Sequence record: PQ863255.1 | Source: Escherichia phage Ptacy1532 | DNA length: 64,000 bases | Direction: 5' to 3' (one strand) | Shown: piece by piece, positions 36,279-50,977 of the stretch | How the letters are laid out: each line of letters begins with the position of its first letter | Position numbering within the stretch: the first letter of the stretch is position 1 | Position numbers and translations under genes: made by a program | Notes under the pieces: model-generated | Told to the model about the DNA's origin: nothing | Database searches by the model: none | The model's input: only the letters and a program-made list of their open reading frames with translations

Positions 36279-36515
36279 TCACTCTGCCAATGCAGGTATC
36301 TCTAATCTCTTAATTGTGAATGCTTTGTCTGGAAACTTTCGAACTAGCTCCGCTGCTTTGCTAATTGCTAAGTTCTCTGTTTCAAAGATACAGAATTGAC
36401 CATTCAGCGCGGTAATAGTGGAGCCACCACTGAAGATGGCCCAAGATTTATAATAACCACGAACGCTCATAACCCACCTTAGTGCGTATGCATCCAGTTT
36501 AGTCCAATCTGACAA
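36279..36515 (-). CDS. hypothetical protein (78 aa)
   Basis: ORF overlapping the 3' end of the polymerase gene in another frame. Confidence 0.35.
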   Translation of the reverse strand: MSDWTKLDAYALRWVMSVRGYYKSWAIFSGGSTITALNGQFCIFETENLAISKAAELVRKFPDKAFTIKRLEIPALAE

Positions 36516-38323
36516 TCAGAAGCCAGAGGACATTCCATGTTCAAATATTCACCCGCTTTCTTAACACAAAGCTCAGTGTGTTCTTTGAGTTTCTGTACAT
36601 CATTACGATTCACTGAGAATTGGCCCTCATCGTGCATATCAATTACCTTAGCACAACGAACCCTATCCCTCTCAATCCACTTGTTTAGGAACATCATAGC
36701 ATATTTCATAACAACAGCACCAGCACATTGCAGGAGAGTGTTAAGTGCTTTATGAACCATAACCTTACCAGTGGCATCTCGTCTCATTGTAATCTTACGA
36801 CCATCAACACCAATCAAGTATCCTTGAGCAGCTTTCTCTGTCATACGATCAATGAGGATTGCAATACATGGGTTCTCTGCCAAGAAACGTGCTCGCATCA
36901 CTGAACCTTCGTCAGCCCCACCACCTACAATTGAACCAAGCTTAGCGTCTCCAGCACCGTAGTTGAATGCATAGATAAACGTTTTAGCATTGTCACGAGT
37001 AGGAAGACCAGCAAGTTTCTGGTTGTGGGAGTGGATATCGCCTTCAAGGAGGATATCACGATACATAATAGCAGAAGCTAAACCACGTTCTGCCAGAGCT
37101 TTCTTAGCTGGATTGTTTTCTTCTATTGCTTCAGCAAGCATATCCCTACACTCTTTAATGAGGTAGTGAGCGAGCATACGAAGCTCAAGTCCAGAACCAT
37201 CATACCCTAAGAATACTTCTTTACCAGCGGGTATGTAATATTTGTAAGCACCTACAGGTTTGTCTTTCTTCCCCGGCTTACCTTTCTCGTAAATTACGTT
37301 AGTACCTTTTCGTATATAACAACCATCAGGAACAACGTTAGTAATAACGAAAGGACGAGAATGATCACTGTCTGAGTTATAGTCAGACTCAAACAGACTG
37401 CGACACTCGTGACCAAACAGACCACGGGAGGGAATATTAACCACGATACGATGTTTGAATCGAAAAGTCGGAGTAGCGCAGCTGTTAGCTTCTGCCGAAA
37501 GTTTACCATCTTCGCGTTCCTTTGCTATGAGTCCACTGATAAGACCTAGCCTGTGAGCCGCTACAACGCGTCTCTTAAGCAAACTTCCGACACTCCCTAG
37601 CTCACCCCCTAGCCCCTCTTCAAGAGTCTCCTCGAGGTTTGTAGGAGCTGTAGGCCACTTGTTTGATGTGGCTAGTGCTTTCTTAATCTCATCAAACGTT
37701 ACAGGATTACGACGATTAGGGTTCAATCCCAAACCAAATACGTAAGCCTTCATATAGTTCTTAGTCTTAAACCTGAAATGCTTTTCTAAGAACTTCTTAA
37801 TATCAGCGTCAACCATCTCGGCTGTCTGCTTCTGTTTAGTATTGCCTCGCATCCAAGCAGTGTACCATGCTTGATACGTTCCATACTTTCTCATATCTTT
37901 CTTAATTTCGAAAGTATTCCAAGGCTTCTTAGATACATTAAACTCTGGAGGAAGAAAGCCCTCATCCATAAGAGCTTCTTTAACTCGAGCATCTTTCGAT
38001 GGGTCAAAGTCTACGTATTCAACACAGGTGAAAGCTCCACCAATATCTTCTCTTTTCAGCCCAACCCTATCACAATAGGCTTGAGGCCACTTCTGTAAAG
38101 CTCCAGACTTCTTAAACGGCTTCATATAAGTAGAGCCGTCTAATCTCATCTTAGGTAAGAGAGGAATCAACTCTCTGTCAATATTAACAATAATCTCTTT
38201 AAGGAGGTGAACATACCACCGAGCATTTCTTCGGTTGAAACTCACTCCGTGCTTTGCTTGCTTAGAGATTATATCAGCGACAGTCATCTCTGTCAAAAAT
38301 GGAAGAGCGTCCGGGTTGCTCAC
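36479..38323 (-). CDS. DNA polymerase, family A polymerase domain (T7 gp5-like), lacks exonuclease domain
   Basis: 614 aa; motif A YDGSGLELRMLAHYL, motif B PTRDNAKTFIYAFNYGAGDAKLG, motif C VIDMHDEGQF; no Exo motifs. Confidence 0.8.
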   Translation of the reverse strand: MSNPDALPFLTEMTVADIISKQAKHGVSFNRRNARWYVHLLKEIIVNIDRELIPLLPKMRLDGSTYMKPFKKSGALQKWPQAYCDRVGLKREDIGGAFTCVEYVDFDPSKDARVKEALMDEGFLPPEFNVSKKPWNTFEIKKDMRKYGTYQAWYTAWMRGNTKQKQTAEMVDADIKKFLEKHFRFKTKNYMKAYVFGLGLNPNRRNPVTFDEIKKALATSNKWPTAPTNLEETLEEGLGGELGSVGSLLKRRVVAAHRLGLISGLIAKEREDGKLSAEANSCATPTFRFKHRIVVNIPSRGLFGHECRSLFESDYNSDSDHSRPFVITNVVPDGCYIRKGTNVIYEKGKPGKKDKPVGAYKYYIPAGKEVFLGYDGSGLELRMLAHYLIKECRDMLAEAIEENNPAKKALAERGLASAIMYRDILLEGDIHSHNQKLAGLPTRDNAKTFIYAFNYGAGDAKLGSIVGGGADEGSVMRARFLAENPCIAILIDRMTEKAAQGYLIGVDGRKITMRRDATGKVMVHKALNTLLQCAGAVVMKYAMMFLNKWIERDRVRCAKVIDMHDEGQFSVNRNDVQKLKEHTELCVKKAGEYLNMECPLASDCQIGLNWMHTH

Positions 38324-42958: not shown

Positions 42959-43615
42959 TTAAATCTCCAATGTTTTCTTCAGAGCTGCCCACGAGATTGG
43001 GTAGATCTTAGTCATCTCTTCGTCTACAGATTTAGCAAACACTCGAACTTCATATTGAGCGTGAGAGGAGAGTCGCTGACGACACAACTCAAACCATCCA
43101 TACAAAGAACCAGTCCACACCCACTCAGTGATCATCCCCTGAGGAAGAACAAATCGAGCTTGCTCTGGTGCAATAAATTCAATCAACTTGTCATATGCTG
43201 CTAGAGAAGCTTCATATGCATCATTAATCAGCATTAATGCTTCAGCTCGTTCTCCGTCGATGAGTTGAATCCCTGAACCTGCATGGAGGTCCGAAGGTCT
43301 CGCAAAAATCTCTTTAGGGATGAAGACTTCAACTGCTCCATCTTTATACCGCCGGGACATTTCGTTCCACGAGAATCCAACCTGATGCTTCTGTAGTTGA
43401 CGAGCGATTGCAATTGGAGCCTTACAACGAAAGGACACTTGTGGGTGACGGAACGGAGTGCAGTGTTTCTCTCTAGCCAAGAAATTAATCAACCGAGTGT
43501 CACGATCGTTCAAATCACCCTCTCGTACAACACCAAAAGAAACTCTTGCAGCATTAACAACAGTTTTATCACTGCCCATAGCCTCAATCAATGTTGCTTG
43601 CAATTGTTCATTCAT
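42959..43615 (-). CDS. thyX: flavin-dependent thymidylate synthase (ThyX-like)
   Basis: 218 aa; overall ThyX-like pattern with HCTPFRH and SRRY segments; call from motif resemblance only. Confidence 0.6.
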   Translation of the reverse strand: MNEQLQATLIEAMGSDKTVVNAARVSFGVVREGDLNDRDTRLINFLAREKHCTPFRHPQVSFRCKAPIAIARQLQKHQVGFSWNEMSRRYKDGAVEVFIPKEIFARPSDLHAGSGIQLIDGERAEALMLINDAYEASLAAYDKLIEFIAPEQARFVLPQGMITEWVWTGSLYGWFELCRQRLSSHAQYEVRVFAKSVDEEMTKIYPISWAALKKTLEI

Positions 43616-44087
43616 ACTTCAACTTCTCCTTGTTATAAGCAATCTCTGCTTCCTCTGGAGTATGGAAAGTTCCTAGATGCTTAGTCTTTCCATTAACTCC
43701 GATGATAGCTCTGAATTTTGTACCACTAGCCGTCTCTCTGATGTAAACACCCATTGGAAGTTTTCCAGCTTTTCCGGCTCTGTTGTATTGTTTTCTGTTA
43801 TGACAGTTTGTAGATGGGTCAACATCTCTTAGATTTTTAAGAGAGTCATCCAGTTTAATCTGGTTGATATGATCAATCTCAAACTCAGGCATCTTTCCAT
43901 AAGAGAAAAACCAAGCTAATCGACATGCTCTGTAAGATTTCCCTTCATAATAGATATACCTGTAACCTAATGTTGAGATACACCCAGCAATGTTCCCTGA
44001 TATTCTCCGACCTTTAGTATTCTTCCACCTAAAGACCCCAGTATCAGGGTCATATGCTAGGTCATCTTTTATTTTATCAGTTAACAC
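43608..44087 (-). CDS. HNH homing endonuclease with AP2-like domain
   Basis: 159 aa; EIDHINQIKLDDSLKNLR HNH motif; C-terminal GVY..ASGTKFRA AP2-like segment. Confidence 0.7.
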   Translation of the reverse strand: MLTDKIKDDLAYDPDTGVFRWKNTKGRRISGNIAGCISTLGYRYIYYEGKSYRACRLAWFFSYGKMPEFEIDHINQIKLDDSLKNLRDVDPSTNCHNRKQYNRAGKAGKLPMGVYIRETASGTKFRAIIGVNGKTKHLGTFHTPEEAEIAYNKEKLKYE

Positions 44088-44352
44088 CTAAAGCTGTGTC
44101 CAAAAATGCTTTCAGGTTTGCTTCAGTCTGCATACCAGAGAGGCTGTAATGTGCACCGCTGTTACGGTCAGGTACAACGAAAGCAGGGATGCTTCGTACA
44201 CCATACTTAACAGCTTGCTCACGACCATCACCTTCAAGGATGTTAATCTCTTCCACTTCTACATCAAACTCCTTAACAACCTTCTCAAAGGTAGGAGCCA
44301 TTGCTTTACATGGAGCACATTGATCACTATAAAACTTAATTACTTTAGACAT
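44077..44352 (-). CDS. thioredoxin-fold protein
   Basis: ORF track 44077..44358 (TTG); ATG 44352 preferred (GAGGA SD); CAPC active-site motif and cis-Pro region VRSIPAFVV. Confidence 0.65.
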   Translation of the reverse strand: MSKVIKFYSDQCAPCKAMAPTFEKVVKEFDVEVEEINILEGDGREQAVKYGVRSIPAFVVPDRNSGAHYSLSGMQTEANLKAFLDTALGVN

Positions 44353-44522
44353 TAACAATCCTCGTTAACAAATTCTTTAAGGTGGCGTTCTGTGGTAGGT
44401 ATTACGATGTAATCTTTATACCCTTGAGCTTTGGCTAAATCCTCAGCTATCTTTTTAGTAGCCCCCAATGCCATCACACACTGACAAACAATCACCGTGT
44501 GAGCTTTGTATTCGTCCTTCAT
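44352..44522 (-). CDS. hypothetical small protein (56 aa)
   Basis: Below ORF-track cutoff; stop overlaps thioredoxin start (TAATG); contains CQC. Confidence 0.25.
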   Translation of the reverse strand: MKDEYKAHTVIVCQCVMALGATKKIAEDLAKAQGYKDYIVIPTTERHLKEFVNEDC

Positions 44523-44772: not shown

Positions 44773-45384
44773 TTAGTAAGACACATCACCACTTGAGTGG
44801 GACATGTTGCTCTTGACGAAGTAGCAATACTTGCCAAGACCTTCATTAATTTCTTGAAGCATACTCTGGTCAACTGGATAAGTGGCTAAATCGCCATCAA
44901 ACTCATCCATCTTCTCAATAATACACATCAAGGTCATGCACATATCAGAGAGCATACCGTCCATATCCAGATCAGCATTACCCTCTGAGAACCAAGCATG
45001 GGAGAGGTAGTTAGCTGCTGTAGCATCCACCTTAACACAGTGGTATCGCATACGCTCAGCAATACGATCTCCTACTTGTCGTGCGTAATCTTCCAGCTCA
45101 TCAAACATACCATGAACACCCTGAAATCCTGCACCAGAGACATTCCAGTGGTAGTTCTTAGCTTTGATATGCAAGAGTTCCATGTTAGCTTGTAAGCAGC
45201 TTAGGATGTGTTCTAGGCTGTTTCCACTAATCATACCCTGCATAGTTTCAAGGCGAGAGATTGAAAGCTCAGACCGGTCTAACATGTTATATTCTGCACG
45301 ACCAATCTCAGGTAAATCAAAGACATTCTTATGCATTTGGGTTTTCTCCATCAAGTTCAACTGAGTTAGCAACGTTACGTGCAA
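44773..45384 (-). CDS. Dps/ferritin-like protein (putative)
   Basis: 203 aa; KNYHWNVSGAGFQGVHGMFDELEDYARQVGDRIAERM fits the Dps pattern HWN..G..F...H...E.......D.IAER. Confidence 0.45.
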   Translation of the reverse strand: MHVTLLTQLNLMEKTQMHKNVFDLPEIGRAEYNMLDRSELSISRLETMQGMISGNSLEHILSCLQANMELLHIKAKNYHWNVSGAGFQGVHGMFDELEDYARQVGDRIAERMRYHCVKVDATAANYLSHAWFSEGNADLDMDGMLSDMCMTLMCIIEKMDEFDGDLATYPVDQSMLQEINEGLGKYCYFVKSNMSHSSGDVSY

Positions 45385-45731: not shown

Positions 45732-45941
45732 TCAGTAATAAATTACTTTAGACATAAAAGAACCCGAGCTAGGGTCTTCGTACCAGCGATGAATGTCAGC
45801 ACTTTTAACAGTTCCTATTAGAGCTTTCATGTTCTTTTTAGCGACACGAGCCTCTTTGCGAGTGTTAAACAGTTTGATATTATCTTTACCTAAGTGTTGT
45901 TTCTGTTCCCAAACAACACGAACAGCCCACATCTTTTTCAT
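45732..45941 (-). CDS. small basic protein, tandem paralog 3 of 3
   Basis: 69 aa; W.VRV...F.TR.EAR..KK pattern and C-terminal YY shared with two upstream genes. Confidence 0.45.
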   Translation of the reverse strand: MKKMWAVRVVWEQKQHLGKDNIKLFNTRKEARVAKKNMKALIGTVKSADIHRWYEDPSSGSFMSKVIYY

Positions 45942-46150
45942 TAGTAATGTACCTTTCCGCTGATATAAATACGACCAGAGGAATACTCCTTGGCCTTATG
46001 GATACTAATGCTCTTAGTTAAGTCCATATTGAACATAGACTTTTTAAAATCTCGAGCTTGTTGACGGGTGGGCAGTGCAGTCATAGTCATACCACCTGAT
46101 GCCCACTTAATCTTCGCTAACCAGAACTGTCTCATAGTGATTGGTCTCAT
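45941..46150 (-). CDS. small basic protein, tandem paralog 2 of 3
   Basis: 69 aa; same family; 1-nt start/stop overlaps. Confidence 0.45.
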   Translation of the reverse strand: MRPITMRQFWLAKIKWASGGMTMTALPTRQQARDFKKSMFNMDLTKSISIHKAKEYSSGRIYISGKVHY

Positions 46151-46347
46151 TAATAATAAACCTTGCTGTTGGCAAAAAGAGCACCTTCGTTATTCACAAT
46201 AGCTTTTCCTATTGTAATCTTACCTGACAGACCTATCCCCTTAAAAATCTTCTTAATTCGACGGGCGTGCTCTCGAGTATTAACAAAATCTACAGATTTT
46301 ATATCACCTGTCTTGTTATCATGTACACGAACAATCCACTTTTTCAT
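46150..46347 (-). CDS. small basic protein, tandem paralog 1 of 3
   Basis: 65 aa; MKKWIVRV...TREHARRIKK...KVYY. Confidence 0.45.
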   Translation of the reverse strand: MKKWIVRVHDNKTGDIKSVDFVNTREHARRIKKIFKGIGLSGKITIGKAIVNNEGALFANSKVYY

Positions 46348-46550
46348 TTTACTAAACCTTTCATATAATCATAAAGAGCATTAGAAGCTTTACCCCATTC
46401 AAGGTGCTTCTTATCCATATAACTCTTACAGGTTTCTTTACTGCTTTCATCACAAATATCAAATCGATGACATGCTCGACCAAATACCATGGCTTTTAAC
46501 TGAACATCGGTAGTTAGATATTTAAGTTCTTGAAACTCTTCTTTAGTCAT
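46344..46550 (-). CDS. hypothetical protein (68 aa)
   Basis: ORF in operon. Confidence 0.4.
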   Translation of the reverse strand: MTKEEFQELKYLTTDVQLKAMVFGRACHRFDICDESSKETCKSYMDKKHLEWGKASNALYDYMKGLVK

Positions 46551-47084
46551 TTACACACCTTTAGATGCAACTACACCTTCAGAGTTATTATAACGACCCT
46601 TCACTGCATAGGAGTGTTCCCCTGCATGAGAGTGCTCAAACATGACCATCTGACCAACACGCATACCAGCACGAACTCGTAAGCTATGATGCTTGGTTAC
46701 GTTATGGAACTCAAATGTCAGCTTACTGCTGTTAAACCCTGCGTCTGCCCACCCGGCGTGGAGATGGTTCAAACCACAACGAGCCATAGACGAACGCAGA
46801 ACAAACAGACTTGAGATGTTATCTGGAAGATTAAACTCCTCCATAGAGTGAGCCAAGAAAAACTGACCCGGAGTGATAACCAAACCCTCTTCAGGAATCT
46901 TTACTTCTTTCCACTGAAGATTCTCTTTCGCATCAATATCAACGATGCCATCAGCCTGTTCTTCAACAAGGATAGTATCACCAATACGGATATCCACACT
47001 AGCAGCGTTAACATACTTATGCTCCGCATCCAGATAGCCATTGTCAATTACATCGTGCAGTTCAACACTTCCTAGTAAACTCAT
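46551..47084 (-). CDS. dcd: dCTP deaminase / dUTPase-family enzyme
   Basis: 177 aa; AASVDIRIGDT and GWADAGF match dCTP deaminase signature regions. Confidence 0.7.
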   Translation of the reverse strand: MSLLGSVELHDVIDNGYLDAEHKYVNAASVDIRIGDTILVEEQADGIVDIDAKENLQWKEVKIPEEGLVITPGQFFLAHSMEEFNLPDNISSLFVLRSSMARCGLNHLHAGWADAGFNSSKLTFEFHNVTKHHSLRVRAGMRVGQMVMFEHSHAGEHSYAVKGRYNNSEGVVASKGV

Positions 47085-47093
47085 TCTTATTCC

Positions 47094-48404
47094 TTAGTTA
47101 TTTGTTTCCATGTCAAAAGAGATTCCACGACCCGCTTCATCGGCAAACCGATCATCGAGACTGTGACTGACAGTATCAGCAAGTTCTTCATGAGAGGGAA
47201 TGTCAAGACTACCTACCACATCTTGAGCAGAAGCTTCATCAGTCCAGATAACACGAGAAGGGGCGTTGATATCACCAACAGCAAAACCCTGACCAGAGAA
47301 CTGGTGACGGCTAATAGTCAAACCATTTGATCGACCACGAGAAGGACTAGACATCCATCTCTCCATAGAATCACTTGTAATGCCAAGAGCTTCTTCAAAA
47401 GATGTTCTACGAGAAGAGCTTAGATTTCGTGCTTCATTTGCTCGGCGTCTTGTAGGGGCTACAAACACCCCTTCGATTGCGTTATGACGACTAGGCTCTT
47501 CTTCTCTACCAAGCAAATCACCACCCGTGTTAGTCGTTAAATTTGTCAACCCTTCAGACCAATACGCATAAATTTGACCAGACCCATGAAGACTTGACAT
47601 AATCTGAATCTCTTCATAGGGGATTCCAAAGAATCGACTCATGTCACGGTTAACGCAATACTGAGCACTTGTTGTATCCTCAATAAGAGAAACCTGACCT
47701 AATCCATTAACCAGATGACTAACTGGCTGAGGTGTAGGAAGGTATCGAGTTTGGGCCATATATTGATATGCAACAGATGGAGCTGAGAATCTCAACACTT
47801 GTGAATTAGGCCACTTTTTGTGAACGTATCTGATTTCACGACTAGAAACAACCACAGGGCAAGGAGCGGTCATAGCTAAATACCCATGAGGGGTCATGAA
47901 TAAGTTGTCAAGAGTCATCGCACCACGGCACATCATAGGAAAATTATCCAGAACCTCTTCAATAGAAGTAGGATAATTAAACATGAACTGGATACGAGTT
48001 CCATTCCACTGAAACTCAATAATATCAGTGAACGTTAATTGAGAAGTCCCTGTGTATGGCTCATCTGTAGCTTCAGCAAGAAGTGACGAATATTCAATAT
48101 CTTGTGACTCAAGCCACTCCTTCACGTTACTTTCAATTTCTCTTCCAAGAGCTTGCCAATGATCAGTTGATGTGAAAGTATTTTGGGTTCTTGGTGTTTG
48201 TCCTCTGACAATAAAGATATCAATGTCATGTGGAGCTGTGTTGTTAAGGACAGCATCACGAACAGCCCCACCAGTAATGATGGGACAGATACCGTCTGGA
48301 ATCAAGTTGTTGTTAATCAACTGTTCAATGAAGTGACGACCAACAGTGATATCAGGTTGTTGAGCAACCTTATCTTCAATTCGGTTAATCGGGATAACAA
48401 TCAT
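47094..48404 (-). CDS. nucleotidyltransferase, Pol-beta superfamily (CCA-adding / poly(A) polymerase-like head)
   Basis: ORF track 47094..48461; internal Met start preferred; ITGGAVRDAVL...HDIDIFI matches the GGxxRD...DxD head-domain motif; divergent C-terminal 300 aa. Confidence 0.5.
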   Translation of the reverse strand: MIVIPINRIEDKVAQQPDITVGRHFIEQLINNNLIPDGICPIITGGAVRDAVLNNTAPHDIDIFIVRGQTPRTQNTFTSTDHWQALGREIESNVKEWLESQDIEYSSLLAEATDEPYTGTSQLTFTDIIEFQWNGTRIQFMFNYPTSIEEVLDNFPMMCRGAMTLDNLFMTPHGYLAMTAPCPVVVSSREIRYVHKKWPNSQVLRFSAPSVAYQYMAQTRYLPTPQPVSHLVNGLGQVSLIEDTTSAQYCVNRDMSRFFGIPYEEIQIMSSLHGSGQIYAYWSEGLTNLTTNTGGDLLGREEEPSRHNAIEGVFVAPTRRRANEARNLSSSRRTSFEEALGITSDSMERWMSSPSRGRSNGLTISRHQFSGQGFAVGDINAPSRVIWTDEASAQDVVGSLDIPSHEELADTVSHSLDDRFADEAGRGISFDMETNN

Positions 48405-48405
48405 T

Positions 48406-48963
48406 TTACATTTTCCAATATAATGAAGGTGGGTCGTAAGGGTCAAATCCTGTGAGTTCACACAAGAAAAGATAAACCTTAACAGTTAAGTTAACGTCCT
48501 GTTCACAATAAGTAAACATATCTTCAGTGAAAGCATCCCATGCTTCCTCTTGCTCACCATAATCGCCCTTAAGTTCTCCTAAGAACTCACCCCACTGCTT
48601 CAAACCATGACCTCTTGGGCCACGTCTAGGGTCGCCTTTCGGATACTCAGGACTGTCACCAATACGGTCAGGTTTAAGATATCGACTAAGACATAAAGTG
48701 TCAAAGACGTTAAAACGATATTCAATTAGATTAGGATACATTTTCTTCAGAGCACAAAGGTCGAAGTCAATAATATTATGACCCACGAGCACATCTGCTT
48801 CTGTCAGTTTACGAATCCCGTCTTCGATTTGGTGAGGCCGATAGCCCCACCTTTCACCAGTTTCAACATCGAAGATATAAATACACCATACTTTAGTTAT
48901 GTCATCGTACAGTGCATTACTCTCGATATCGAATGCAAACACTTTCTTCTTTTTCTTTACCAC
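48406..48963 (-). CDS. 3'-5' exonuclease domain protein (T7 gp5 N-terminal-like)
   Basis: 185 aa; FDIESNAL (Exo I), [13 protein letters not shown] (Exo II), YCEQDV (Exo III); encoded separately from the polymerase domain. Confidence 0.7.
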
Positions 48964-50747
48964 GGTGAAGCTCCATCTGCTTGGTTGACGAGAGAAGCTG
49001 CATCCTCTCCATTAGTTAAAACGAATGGATTATCTTCATCAACTTCAAAGTCTTCCCTTTCTACAAGTCTACCGGTTTCACTGATATACTTAGTATAGCA
49101 GACACCCGTCTGACCGTAGTTACGTTCTTTCAGTAATCGAATGACTGAGAGGTTCTTAGCTAAGCCATCAGCTTGCTTGTCGCGCTCAAAGCCAATGATA
49201 CACTGACACCAACGCATAAGGGAACGAGAACCAGTGAACTGCACTTCACGTACCTGTCCACCTTCTTCATGAGGAGCACCACCTGCCGGAGCATTAAGGT
49301 GAGATAGAACGAAAGCGGTAAAGTCTAATTCTTTACACATACCAGCAAGCTCAGAAGCAATCTTACTGATTTCAGTGTTAATCTCTGAAGGTGTTAAATG
49401 AGATACCAGAGCGGTAATGTTATCAAGGATGATAAACTTACACTGGTTTTCAACTACCCAGAAACGGATACACTGTTTAATGTCTTCCCATTCGTTCTGT
49501 CCGAAGTTGTCATACAAGAAGAATTTGTCTGCATAACGAAGTGCTTCATTACGCAAATCCTCCTCATCATATTCAACATCAGGTCGGTGGAAAGGAATTG
49601 ATGCTGACTTACCAGCAATGTTCTTAACAGACATGCCTACCTTCTCTTCCAAGAAGAAGCCACCTCCATTAAAACCGTGCTCTAAGCACAGATGAGCAAC
49701 TAGTTCGTGAGCAATTAGTGTTTTACCACTACCTACACCACCACCGATGGCTACCACCTCTCCCCATCGAATACCGAAGGTCATCTCATTCAGAGTCTTC
49801 CACGGATAGGGAATACCCCACTCCGCTTTCTTCAGAGCATCATCAAGACAATCAAAGATTGTTACAGCGCCAGCAGGAGATTCCCGCTTTGCTGAATACT
49901 TGAGAATGTTGAATAGCTCTTGACCACGACCAGATAGAAGCATGTCATTCGCATCCTTAATCTCTTTCTCCACACCATTGTATGGGAAAGTTCCTTTAGG
50001 AATACGAGCAAACTTGACATGAGGGAATAAAGAACGACCTTTTGTTAAAGCTATCTCACCTGCATCATCGTTGTCCATGCAGAGCACAACCTCCTCAAAA
50101 CCATTTACGAAGTCTCGATTACGAGACAACACAGAAGAGATTGAACCTGCACCGAACGGTAAAGAAACACATGCTGGTTTAATATTTGTTGCATTTGTAA
50201 AAGCTGTAAGGACATGGAATCCGGACATACAAGATAGCGGGTCTTCAAAAATGAAGAGCTTCTTGTTGTACACATCTCCACGTTGAGCCTGTGCCATACC
50301 AAATAGGTCTGCTTCTTTCACGCTGCCGACGTAATAGAATTTCTTACTATCTAGTAGCTTAACCTCGTAACCAACAATGTTTCCATCACGTTCACGAGGA
50401 AAGAAGTAGCTGTCTGGAGTCTGTCCATCAGTCTGACTTAGACCAATGCGACACTCAAAACGCTCTGATACAGCTTTAGGGATTAAACGTCGAGTAAGTT
50501 CACCCTGAGGAAGTTCCAAGCAATCATCTAAGACTTCTCTCAACTCTTCAGGGGATAACTCTTTCTTCTCGTTTGGAGTAGGTGTAGTGCCCTTTTCGAA
50601 CACTTCGTAATTCCCACAACGGTTACAACTTCCCCACTCCTCACCTGTCTCTTCGTTACGGAAGAGAATCATGTGGTTGTGGGTTTTATCACGACCATGA
50701 GAGATACATTCCTTACAACCTGTGTCTCCCAAAATGATCTTTGACAT
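48957..50747 (-). CDS. primase-helicase (T7 gp4-like)
   Basis: 596 aa; N-terminal Cys4 zinc motif, central TOPRIM-like region, C-terminal Walker [12 protein letters not shown] DnaB-like helicase. Confidence 0.8.
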
Positions 50748-50773
50748 GCTCTTCCTCCTTGGAATCCTTGAGC

Positions 50774-50977
50774 TTAGTAGAACGAACGAATTTCATCCCA
50801 CACTTGTTCCTGTTCTTTCCTATAAAAAGAAAGTTGGGTCTTGAACATCTCCACTGATGATTCAAAGTTTTTAGATTGTGCAGCTTCAACGAAACGTTCA
50901 TGTCGGTTGATTTTGCACCGTAGCATTAAATACTTGGCTTCAAGTCTCCGAAGAGCCTGTCTTTTCTCAAGATTCAC
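50774..50977 (-). CDS. hypothetical protein (67 aa)
   Basis: ORF in operon. Confidence 0.35.
   Translation of the reverse strand: MNLEKRQALRRLEAKYLMLRCKINRHERFVEAAQSKNFESSVEMFKTQLSFYRKEQEQVWDEIRSFY

Follow-up and report, generated by a model that had tools for sequence, protein, structure and literature searches.

We describe here a nucleotidyltransferase (NTase) gene of Escherichia phage Ptacy1532, at positions 47094..48404 on the minus strand of a 64,000-nucleotide stretch of sequence record PQ863255.1 that is referred to below as the window. Among its described orthologues is CDS74 of phage SU10, which was labelled "nucleotidyltransferase" in 2014; mass spectrometry found its product in a polyethylene glycol (PEG)-precipitated preparation (PMC4281155). 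More distant is Gad2 of Bacillus phage SPbetaL7, in which AlphaFold predicts an NTase domain; its knockout makes the phage sensitive to Gabija, and in B. subtilis the protein has a toxic effect (bioRxiv 10.1101/2023.05.01.538930). Small phage NTases of the phrog_1614 type form a further set, some of them annotated as Gad2 family, and one of these small proteins, gp22 of Pseudomonas phage Emajogi, whose gene adjoins that of the primase/helicase, was toxic at high induction (2026 preprint on Emajogi).

Identity of the gene

Comparison of the window gene with these systems showed that it encodes an orthologue of phiEco32 gp73, a stand-alone Pol-beta-fold nucleotidyltransferase. The protein is 98.4% identical in amino acid sequence to a vB_EcoP_WFI101126 protein annotated "nucleotidyltransferase" in RefSeq and 80.9% identical to phiEco32 gp73 (YP_001671818). 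The family phrog_12715 "nucleotidyltransferase" matched it over its full length (residues 1-436, E 3e-237), with phrog_1614, which carries the same name, as a second, weak match (E 1e-7). An exact-sequence look-up of the window protein returned no record, and NCBIfam gave no match for the NTase, its relatives or Gad2. Across bases 46000-51000 the window shares 98.8% identity with Escherichia phage vB_EcoP_WFI101126, and 99 phage records in the collection searched match this part. Both WFI101126 and phiEco32 belong to the genus Kuravirus within Gordonclarkvirinae. The gene, like its NTase label, is thus already known from RefSeq, PHROGs and the 2014 literature, and the label given in an earlier note on this DNA, made from the sequence alone, repeats existing annotation. 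For now it counts as an ordinary phage gene that already carries an annotation.

The open reading frame (ORF), as read from the ORF listing and the sequence, runs on the minus strand from an ATG at 48404 to a stop codon at 47094-47096. This ATG was taken as the start because all homologues begin at MI(V/K)IP; a longer GTG start at 48461, given by the ORF lister, was rejected, as it would overlap the upstream exonuclease gene. The features of the gene are as follows.

47094..48404, minus strand: nucleotidyltransferase gene, 436 residues plus stop, orthologue of phiEco32 gp73 (phi32_73)
47559..48404, minus strand: folded NTase domain, residues 1-282, a Pol-beta-type head plus helical extension
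48210..48281, minus strand: motif A, ITGGAVRDAVLNNTAPHDIDIFI, residues 42-65, with G45, G46, R49, D50 and the putative catalytic D60 and D62
48015..48026, minus strand: DIIE, residues 127-130, on strand beta 125-133 of the models, with D127 as candidate third carboxylate
47814..47990, minus strand: family-specific conserved core past the head, with Q139, M141, F155-P156, C159, Y193 and K196-K197
47097..47558, minus strand: disordered tail, residues 283-436, rich in S, R, E and G, in which a basic patch, TRRRANEARNLSSSRRTSF, precedes an acidic end

Catalytic head and predicted fold

Motif A reads GGAVRD-x9-DIDIF. A six-frame translation of the window contained a single occurrence of the pattern GG..RD-x6-16-D.D, against 0 in 200 shuffles, and the motif picked out in the earlier note (ITGGAVRDAVL...HDIDIFI) is accordingly real. 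Conservation was assessed with 28 representatives that share no more than 50% mutual identity and are 16-35% identical to the query. Nine residues were invariant in all 28: G45, G46, R49, D50, D60, D62, F64, Q139 and K197. At position 127, 25 of these sequences have D or E, and 18 have an acidic residue at position 130. Based on the topology of the Pol-beta fold, D127 is likely to be the third catalytic carboxylate, and we infer that strand 125-133 neighbours the DxD strand. The protein thereby carries the Pol-beta superfamily signature of hG[GS], then [DE]h[DE]h, plus a third carboxylate at position 127.

In a full-length structure model built with 15 sequences, residues 1-282 were confident, and residues 283-436 had a predicted local distance difference test (pLDDT) score below 50. 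The N-domain modelled alone with 28 sequences reached a pLDDT of 90.3 and a predicted template modelling (pTM) score of 0.87, and had an alpha/beta NTase fold. Foldseek searches of the PDB placed class II CCA-adding enzymes on top (5hc9 and 3h3a, E ~3e-5), followed by TENT5/FAM46 and OAS1, and the matches covered 143-170 of 284 residues, corresponding to the catalytic head. The models show a layout of three parts, predicted as a class-II-like head, an extra helical subdomain that extends to residue 282, and a disordered tail of 154 residues.

These results agree with most of what the earlier note had read from the letters. Motif A and the NTase fold bear out its assignment to the Pol-beta superfamily with a head of the CCA-adding/poly(A) polymerase (PAP) type, which is class II, and structure prediction, which it had proposed as a check, gave the NTase fold with class II CCA-adding enzymes as the best structural neighbours. 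It had also asked after the conservation of the catalytic Asp residues in homologues, and both D60 and D62 proved to be invariant in the 28 representatives; as these residues are invariant, the NTase is probably active as an enzyme. Its description of about 300 residues with no recognizable motif holds for residues 283-436, which are predicted to be disordered, but not for residues 66-282, which belong to the same folded domain and include the conserved Q139, K197 and D/E127.

Comparison with CCA-adding enzymes and poly(A) polymerases

The resemblance to CCA-adding enzymes is concentrated in motif A, where the class II form (GGxVRD...DxD) is present as GGAVRD-x9-DID. The Pfam PolyA_pol head (PF01743) scored 21.3 bits, under its gathering cut-off of 23 bits, and aligned over profile positions 3-84 of 126 only; similarly weak matches were found in 10 of 15 family members. 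In PDB sequence searches, both single-sequence and profile, only residues 18-63, containing motif A, aligned to CCA enzymes. The best profile alignment was to 6ibp (E 3.9e-4), and another profile search gave no significance.

In class II enzymes, motif B (RRD) serves ribose recognition and motif D (EDxxR) is the amino-acid template for CTP and ATP. A pattern search found neither RRD nor EDxxR in the folded domain of any of the 28 representatives, and Pfam and NCBIfam scans of the NTase detected no RNA-binding body or tail domain.

The earlier note had seen no tRNA gene in the window, which the tRNA scan confirmed (ARAGORN 0, Rfam families 0). The nearest relative, whose genome is complete, has a single tRNA gene, which lies in the early region ~1.4 kb past the 3' end of the window.

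NC_070991.1 65913-65988 (L019 25913..25988), nearest relative: tRNA-Arg(UCU), CCA genomically encoded

This tRNA gene ends in ...GGGCGCACCA, the CCA included. Since the only tRNA of the nearest relative encodes its CCA, maturation of the phage tRNA needs no CCA addition. E. coli, moreover, has a CCA enzyme of its own. The suggestion in the earlier note that the protein could repair tRNA 3' CCA ends therefore found no support, as only motif A aligns, RRD and EDxxR are missing and the relative's tRNA encodes CCA. Judged from these sequence comparisons, the NTase is probably not a CCA-adding enzyme and a role in tRNA repair is unlikely. The broader suggestions of the note, that the protein might tail RNAs or modify nucleic acid ends, may still hold, and our best guess at its role is Gad2-like counter-defence or RNA-end modification. 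The annotation "class II CCA-adding enzyme" overreaches, and the evidence against this role guards against the spread of a misleading label through phage records.

Relatives of the NTase and a probable distant link to Gad2

Word-indexed searches retrieved only proteins of Gordonclarkvirinae, which fall into three groups, plus a few metagenomic outliers. The groups are Kuravirus, an EP335 type (34% identity) and an SU7/MLP3 type (~31%). Across groups only the first ~265-280 residues align, and the C-terminal 100-200 residues vary in both length and sequence. The family is small: across 1.84 billion representatives, an exhaustive profile search returned 26 clusters at E<=1e-30, rising to 33 at E<=1e-10 and to 257 at E<=1e-3, with the weaker matches being proteins of ~170-240 residues. 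All of the small relatives sampled had phrog_1614 or phrog_7967, both viral families, as best match. In several phages the small NTase gene lies among replication genes: between the primase/helicase and polymerase genes in Ralstonia phage BOESR1, after the flap endonuclease gene in Pseudomonas phage Ka1, and just upstream of the primase gene in Caulobacter phage Percy.

Precomputed matches to Pfam PF26128 "Gad2" were present on ~30 Kuravirus homologues. The match was marked "weak" for homologue P0038, and was unmarked, i.e., strong, for the outliers P0088 and P0114, which in other phages lie beside a ClpP gene. Gad2 sequences for direct comparison were taken from the supplementary tables of bioRxiv 10.1101/2023.05.01.538930. 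When hhalign was run against Gad2 combined with four bridging proteins that the family's own profile had retrieved, the probability was 96.9% (E 1.3e-10), with residues 38-204 aligned to Gad2 residues 24-168. One bridging protein, P0189, matched Gad2 at 9e-16 in a small database and the family profile at 1.6e-5 library-wide. The conserved core past the NTase head (47814..47990) aligned to Gad2 residues ~88-160 in the profile-profile comparison. Neither BLASTP nor hhalign aligned anything beyond Gad2 residue ~168, leaving the Gad2 C-terminal region (~170-400) unmatched. A tblastn search of phage genomes for Gad2 with P0088 found only a Bordetella phage fragment.

The aligned ~135-150 residues include the N-terminal NTase core hhAGGA...DhDI(F/Y)F, which the phage-encoded Gad2 and the NTase have in common, as well as hQhM/I, F(P/D)xxxC and an RxxxY..K(K/E) helix. 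We conclude from these alignments that Gad2 and the NTase probably share the core of a phage NTase superfamily and belong to separate families within it.

The disordered C-terminal tail

The tail gave no match in a Pfam scan, and its last 74 residues carry a net charge of -10. Within Kuravirus it is 63-86% identical, with indels, compared with 80-95% for the N-domain, and between genera identity in the tail falls to ~20%. Short motifs nevertheless recur in it, namely R..S.F..A(L/F)G and, in Kuravirus, RFA(D/N)E(A/S)GRG, a pattern that would fit a flexible tether with short linear motifs.

In the window copy (47097..47200, minus strand), ~20 residues found in most Kuravirus copies (IANNPEVLEPQT-RTV) are gone between two "RF" repeats (...DRF|ADEAGRG), and a variant of 392 residues, P0042, retains little of the tail, which is therefore prone to indels.

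A separate observation concerns the C-terminus of the primase/helicase (48957..49046, minus strand), which is an acidic tail ending in ...(S/A/R)PW that was invariant in all relatives examined (L002, L003, L005, L007 and L011). In T7 gp4, a C-terminal aromatic residue docks on the polymerase, and the ...PW end of the helicase recalls it. The idea that the NTase tail also ends in a polymerase-docking aromatic residue was rejected and stays speculation, as NTase ends, unlike the helicase ...PW, are not conserved.

Position in the replication gene string

Based on GC skew and ORF orientation, late genes of the window lie on the plus strand to ~28 kb, with middle and early genes on the minus strand thereafter, as is usual for such phages. 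The NTase gene belongs to a one-strand string that runs from a GGACT cyclotransferase gene through a small ORF, a T7 gp4-like primase/helicase, a PolA 3'-5' exonuclease and the NTase to a dCTP deaminase, past which are small ORFs, a Dps-like protein, thioredoxin and ThyX. The immediate neighbours are as follows.

48957..50747, minus strand: T7 gp4-like primase/helicase at the head of the gene string (phrog_239, E 1e-175; DnaB_C and Toprim matches)
48406..48963, minus strand: PolA 3'-5' exonuclease subunit, 185 residues (PF01612, E 2e-8; phrog_38876 and phrog_403 "DNA polymerase exonuclease subunit")
46551..47084, minus strand: dCTP deaminase-like protein, 177 residues (PF22769 DCD, E 3.5e-34; phrog_1663)

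The TAA of the exonuclease gene ends 1 nucleotide before the NTase ATG, and the dCTP deaminase gene begins 9 nucleotides past the NTase stop. The placement in a replication operon proposed by the earlier note is thus borne out by a one-strand string with narrow gaps on both sides. A scan for promoters and terminators around the NTase gene found nothing over shuffled background. A full-length match to phrog_12715 and a position between the PolA exonuclease and dCTP deaminase genes together mark the gp73 group, and the window gene has both.

The same gene order is kept in phiEco32, EP335, SU7 and MLP3, and in the metagenomic relatives P0085, P0086 and P0101, down to 26% identity. Because the order survives to this level of divergence, the NTase gene is part of the core of the lineage's middle-gene string and not a variable accessory.

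The family A DNA polymerase in this region is split into two genes ~10 kb apart, the exonuclease (48406..48963, minus strand) and the polymerase (36479..38323, minus strand). The polymerase subunit has 614 residues and a PF00476 match without exonuclease domains, which parallels the annotation of phiEco32 gp74 and gp53.

Possible functions

By analogy to Gad2, we tentatively propose that the NTase acts in counter-defence or host manipulation timed with DNA replication. We put this at somewhat less than an even chance; it ranks as the most likely role because no relative other than Gad2 has a phenotype on record. In such a mechanism, D60, D62 and D127 would hold two metal ions, G45-G46, R49-D50 and K197 would hold a nucleoside triphosphate (NTP), and a nucleoside monophosphate (NMP) would be transferred without a template to a hydroxyl acceptor, most likely an RNA 3' end or another host nucleic acid. 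The phiEco32-type family, the small "PolyA_pol-head" proteins of podophage replication modules and Gad2 would make up a phage-restricted NTase superfamily. During the DNA-replication phase the enzyme would, like Gad2, neutralize or pre-empt a host response, and its tail, with its short conserved motifs, would probably tether it to a partner. A bolder version, which we regard as doubtful, is that in all three sets of this one superfamily a common non-templated transfer disarms nucleotide-sensing, OLD-family (Gabija-like) or RNA-targeting immunity when replication triggers it, with the NTase being a fixed core gene in Gordonclarkvirinae that is tethered through its tail to its target or the replisome.

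A number of points weigh against a Gad2-like counter-defence role. The direct link is weak, as BLASTP of the NTase against Gad2 gave E 0.003 over 45 residues, and when the family was aligned to three Gad2 sequences, hhalign returned a probability of 63-65% (E 6e-5 to 7e-5); the strong hhalign result depends on the bridging sequences. The best PHROG matches differ, being phrog_18122 for Gad2 and phrog_12715 for the NTase, even though both touch phrog_1614 secondarily, which speaks for the link. Gad2 is without the R-D of GGxxRD (R49-D50 of the NTase), and its C-terminal ~230 residues are folded and unrelated, where the NTase has a disordered tail instead. The gp73 clade has no activity, substrate or phenotype on record for any of its members, and we found no paper that names Gabija alongside Kuravirus or Gordonclarkvirinae. 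Gad2 goes unmentioned in the Gabija structure paper, and later papers add nothing on its mechanism; to say that the NTase "works like Gad2" predicts little. Finally, strict conservation and a fixed position in the replication string are atypical of accessory anti-defence genes, and a housekeeping function fits them equally well.

Other roles can be envisaged for an NTase of this kind. Template-independent tailing of host or phage transcripts in the manner of a poly(A) polymerase, by which RNA decay or host shut-off would be steered, seems unlikely to us. The toxicity of related phage NTases when over-expressed (Gad2, Emajogi gp22) is in its favor, and the basic patch of the tail could bind RNA, but the neck motifs are missing, no RNA-binding domain is recognizable, the gene context contains no RNA-metabolism genes, and shut-off in phiEco32-type phages is ascribed to gp79 and the phage sigma factor (PMC8948821 gene map). 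Slightly less probable again is tRNA 3'-end repair, in which the enzyme would rebuild CCA or extend acceptor ends damaged by host defence nucleases. Class II CCA-adding, A-adding and poly(A) enzymes are the best structural neighbours, motif A is a near-perfect class II motif, and defence by cleavage of tRNA 3' tails does exist, in Cas12a3 (PMC12851939). These points are outweighed by a PolyA_pol match that lies under its cut-off and stops short of motif B, the absence of RRD/EDxxR from the 28 representatives, PDB profile alignments limited to residues 18-63, a C-terminus that is disordered with no RNA-binding body or tail domain found, the CCA encoded by the relative's sole tRNA-Arg, and the presence of the E. 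coli CCA enzyme.

We give about as little weight to a replication-linked enzyme that would assist the split family A polymerase. It would work at the replisome on the 3' ends of DNA, on primers or on a replisome protein (by nucleotidylylation), or else on a nucleotide-pool metabolite. The start of the NTase gene 1 nucleotide past the PolA exonuclease stop, the dCTP deaminase gene directly next to it, the synteny that persists to 26% identity and the small relatives inside replication modules of unrelated podophages all speak for such a link, and the acidic end of the tail may loosely recall the polymerase-docking tails of T7 gp4 and gp2.5. However, the NTase has no DNA-binding domain of the 8-kDa, fingers or thumb-like kinds, the closest structures use RNA and NTPs, the C-termini vary across genera, unlike the invariant ...PW of the helicase, and T7-type replication needs no such enzyme. 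Position alone is also weak evidence, as T7-like middle-gene clusters hold anti-host genes as well. By far the least probable alternative is a catalytically dead pseudo-enzyme that serves as a scaffold with its role in the disordered tail. For it speak the short motifs conserved in the tail and the lack of any demonstrated activity; against it, the residues of the catalytic signature do not vary even among very divergent relatives, and the tail is the least conserved part of the protein.

Other genes of the middle region

Several other genes on the minus strand were noted during this analysis.

44077..44358 and 44773..45384, minus strand: thioredoxin and Dps/ferritin-like genes, within the replication/nucleotide-metabolism string
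50967..51386, minus strand: GGACT gamma-glutamyl cyclotransferase, ligase-type cluster
51893..53089, minus strand: ATP-grasp/RimK-like ORF, annotated in relatives
53533..55224, minus strand: glutamine amidotransferase-like ORF, ligase-type cluster
55643..56746, minus strand: Amidoligase_2, ligase-type cluster
57370..58176, minus strand: phiEco32-type COOH-NH2 ligase, ligase-type cluster

In T7, the polymerase relies on thioredoxin of the host for its processivity, and because of this precedent the phage-encoded thioredoxin may serve the split polymerase. Between the ThyX and thioredoxin genes is an HNH_3 endonuclease ORF with a GTG start (43608..44087, minus strand, 159 residues). It is probably a mobile homing endonuclease, because this site holds no gene in phiEco32 and an HNH gene in EP335. 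Three tandem small ORFs (45732..46347, minus strand; 69, 69 and 65 residues) are paralogue-like and correspond to phiEco32 gp69-71; they have in common a T/N-R-x-x-A-R-x-x-K-K core and a C-terminal ...KV(I/H/Y)Y(Y). The peptide/metabolite-ligase-type gene cluster (50967..58176, minus strand) is conserved in distant relatives.

Comparison with known systems

What our analysis adds to the existing annotation is modest: that the CCA label is an overreach, that Gad2 is the closest relative with a phenotype, and that the family is fixed in podophage replication modules. A conserved, single-copy and probably active NTase in phiEco32, SU10 and BASEL phages Bas87-94 would be a convenient model for finding what phage NTases transfer and onto what, and the substrate of the phiEco32-type NTase could also explain how Gad2 blocks Gabija.

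Compared with class II tRNA nucleotidyltransferases and poly(A) polymerase I, which consist of a PF01743 head, neck, body and tail, the NTase is without motifs B and D, body and tail, superposes over only ~150 of 284 residues, and has a disordered tail of 154 residues as a feature of its own. MenT-type minimal NTase toxins are a different family with no sequence similarity to it, and are found in toxin-antitoxin pairs, not as genes of phage replication modules. The phage that encodes Gad2 is a temperate Bacillus phage, in which the gene occupies a variable locus for anti-defence and not a replication string (bioRxiv 10.1101/2023.05.01.538930). The small "PolyA_pol head domain" NTases (phrog_1614; BOESR1, Percy, Ka1, LKD16 and Emajogi gp22) have the minimal NTase core in common with the phiEco32-type NTase. 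They are ~170-240 residues long, whereas the phiEco32-type NTase adds a helical extension of ~80 residues (205-282) and a long disordered tail, and forms a tight clade of its own apart from them. Within that clade, phiEco32 gp73, SU10 CDS74 and PHROG 12715 are orthologues of the window protein, with 81-98% identity in Kuravirus and alike in length, neighbours and annotation. There is no substantive difference between them and the window copy, which has a 20-residue tail deletion relative to most Kuravirus copies.

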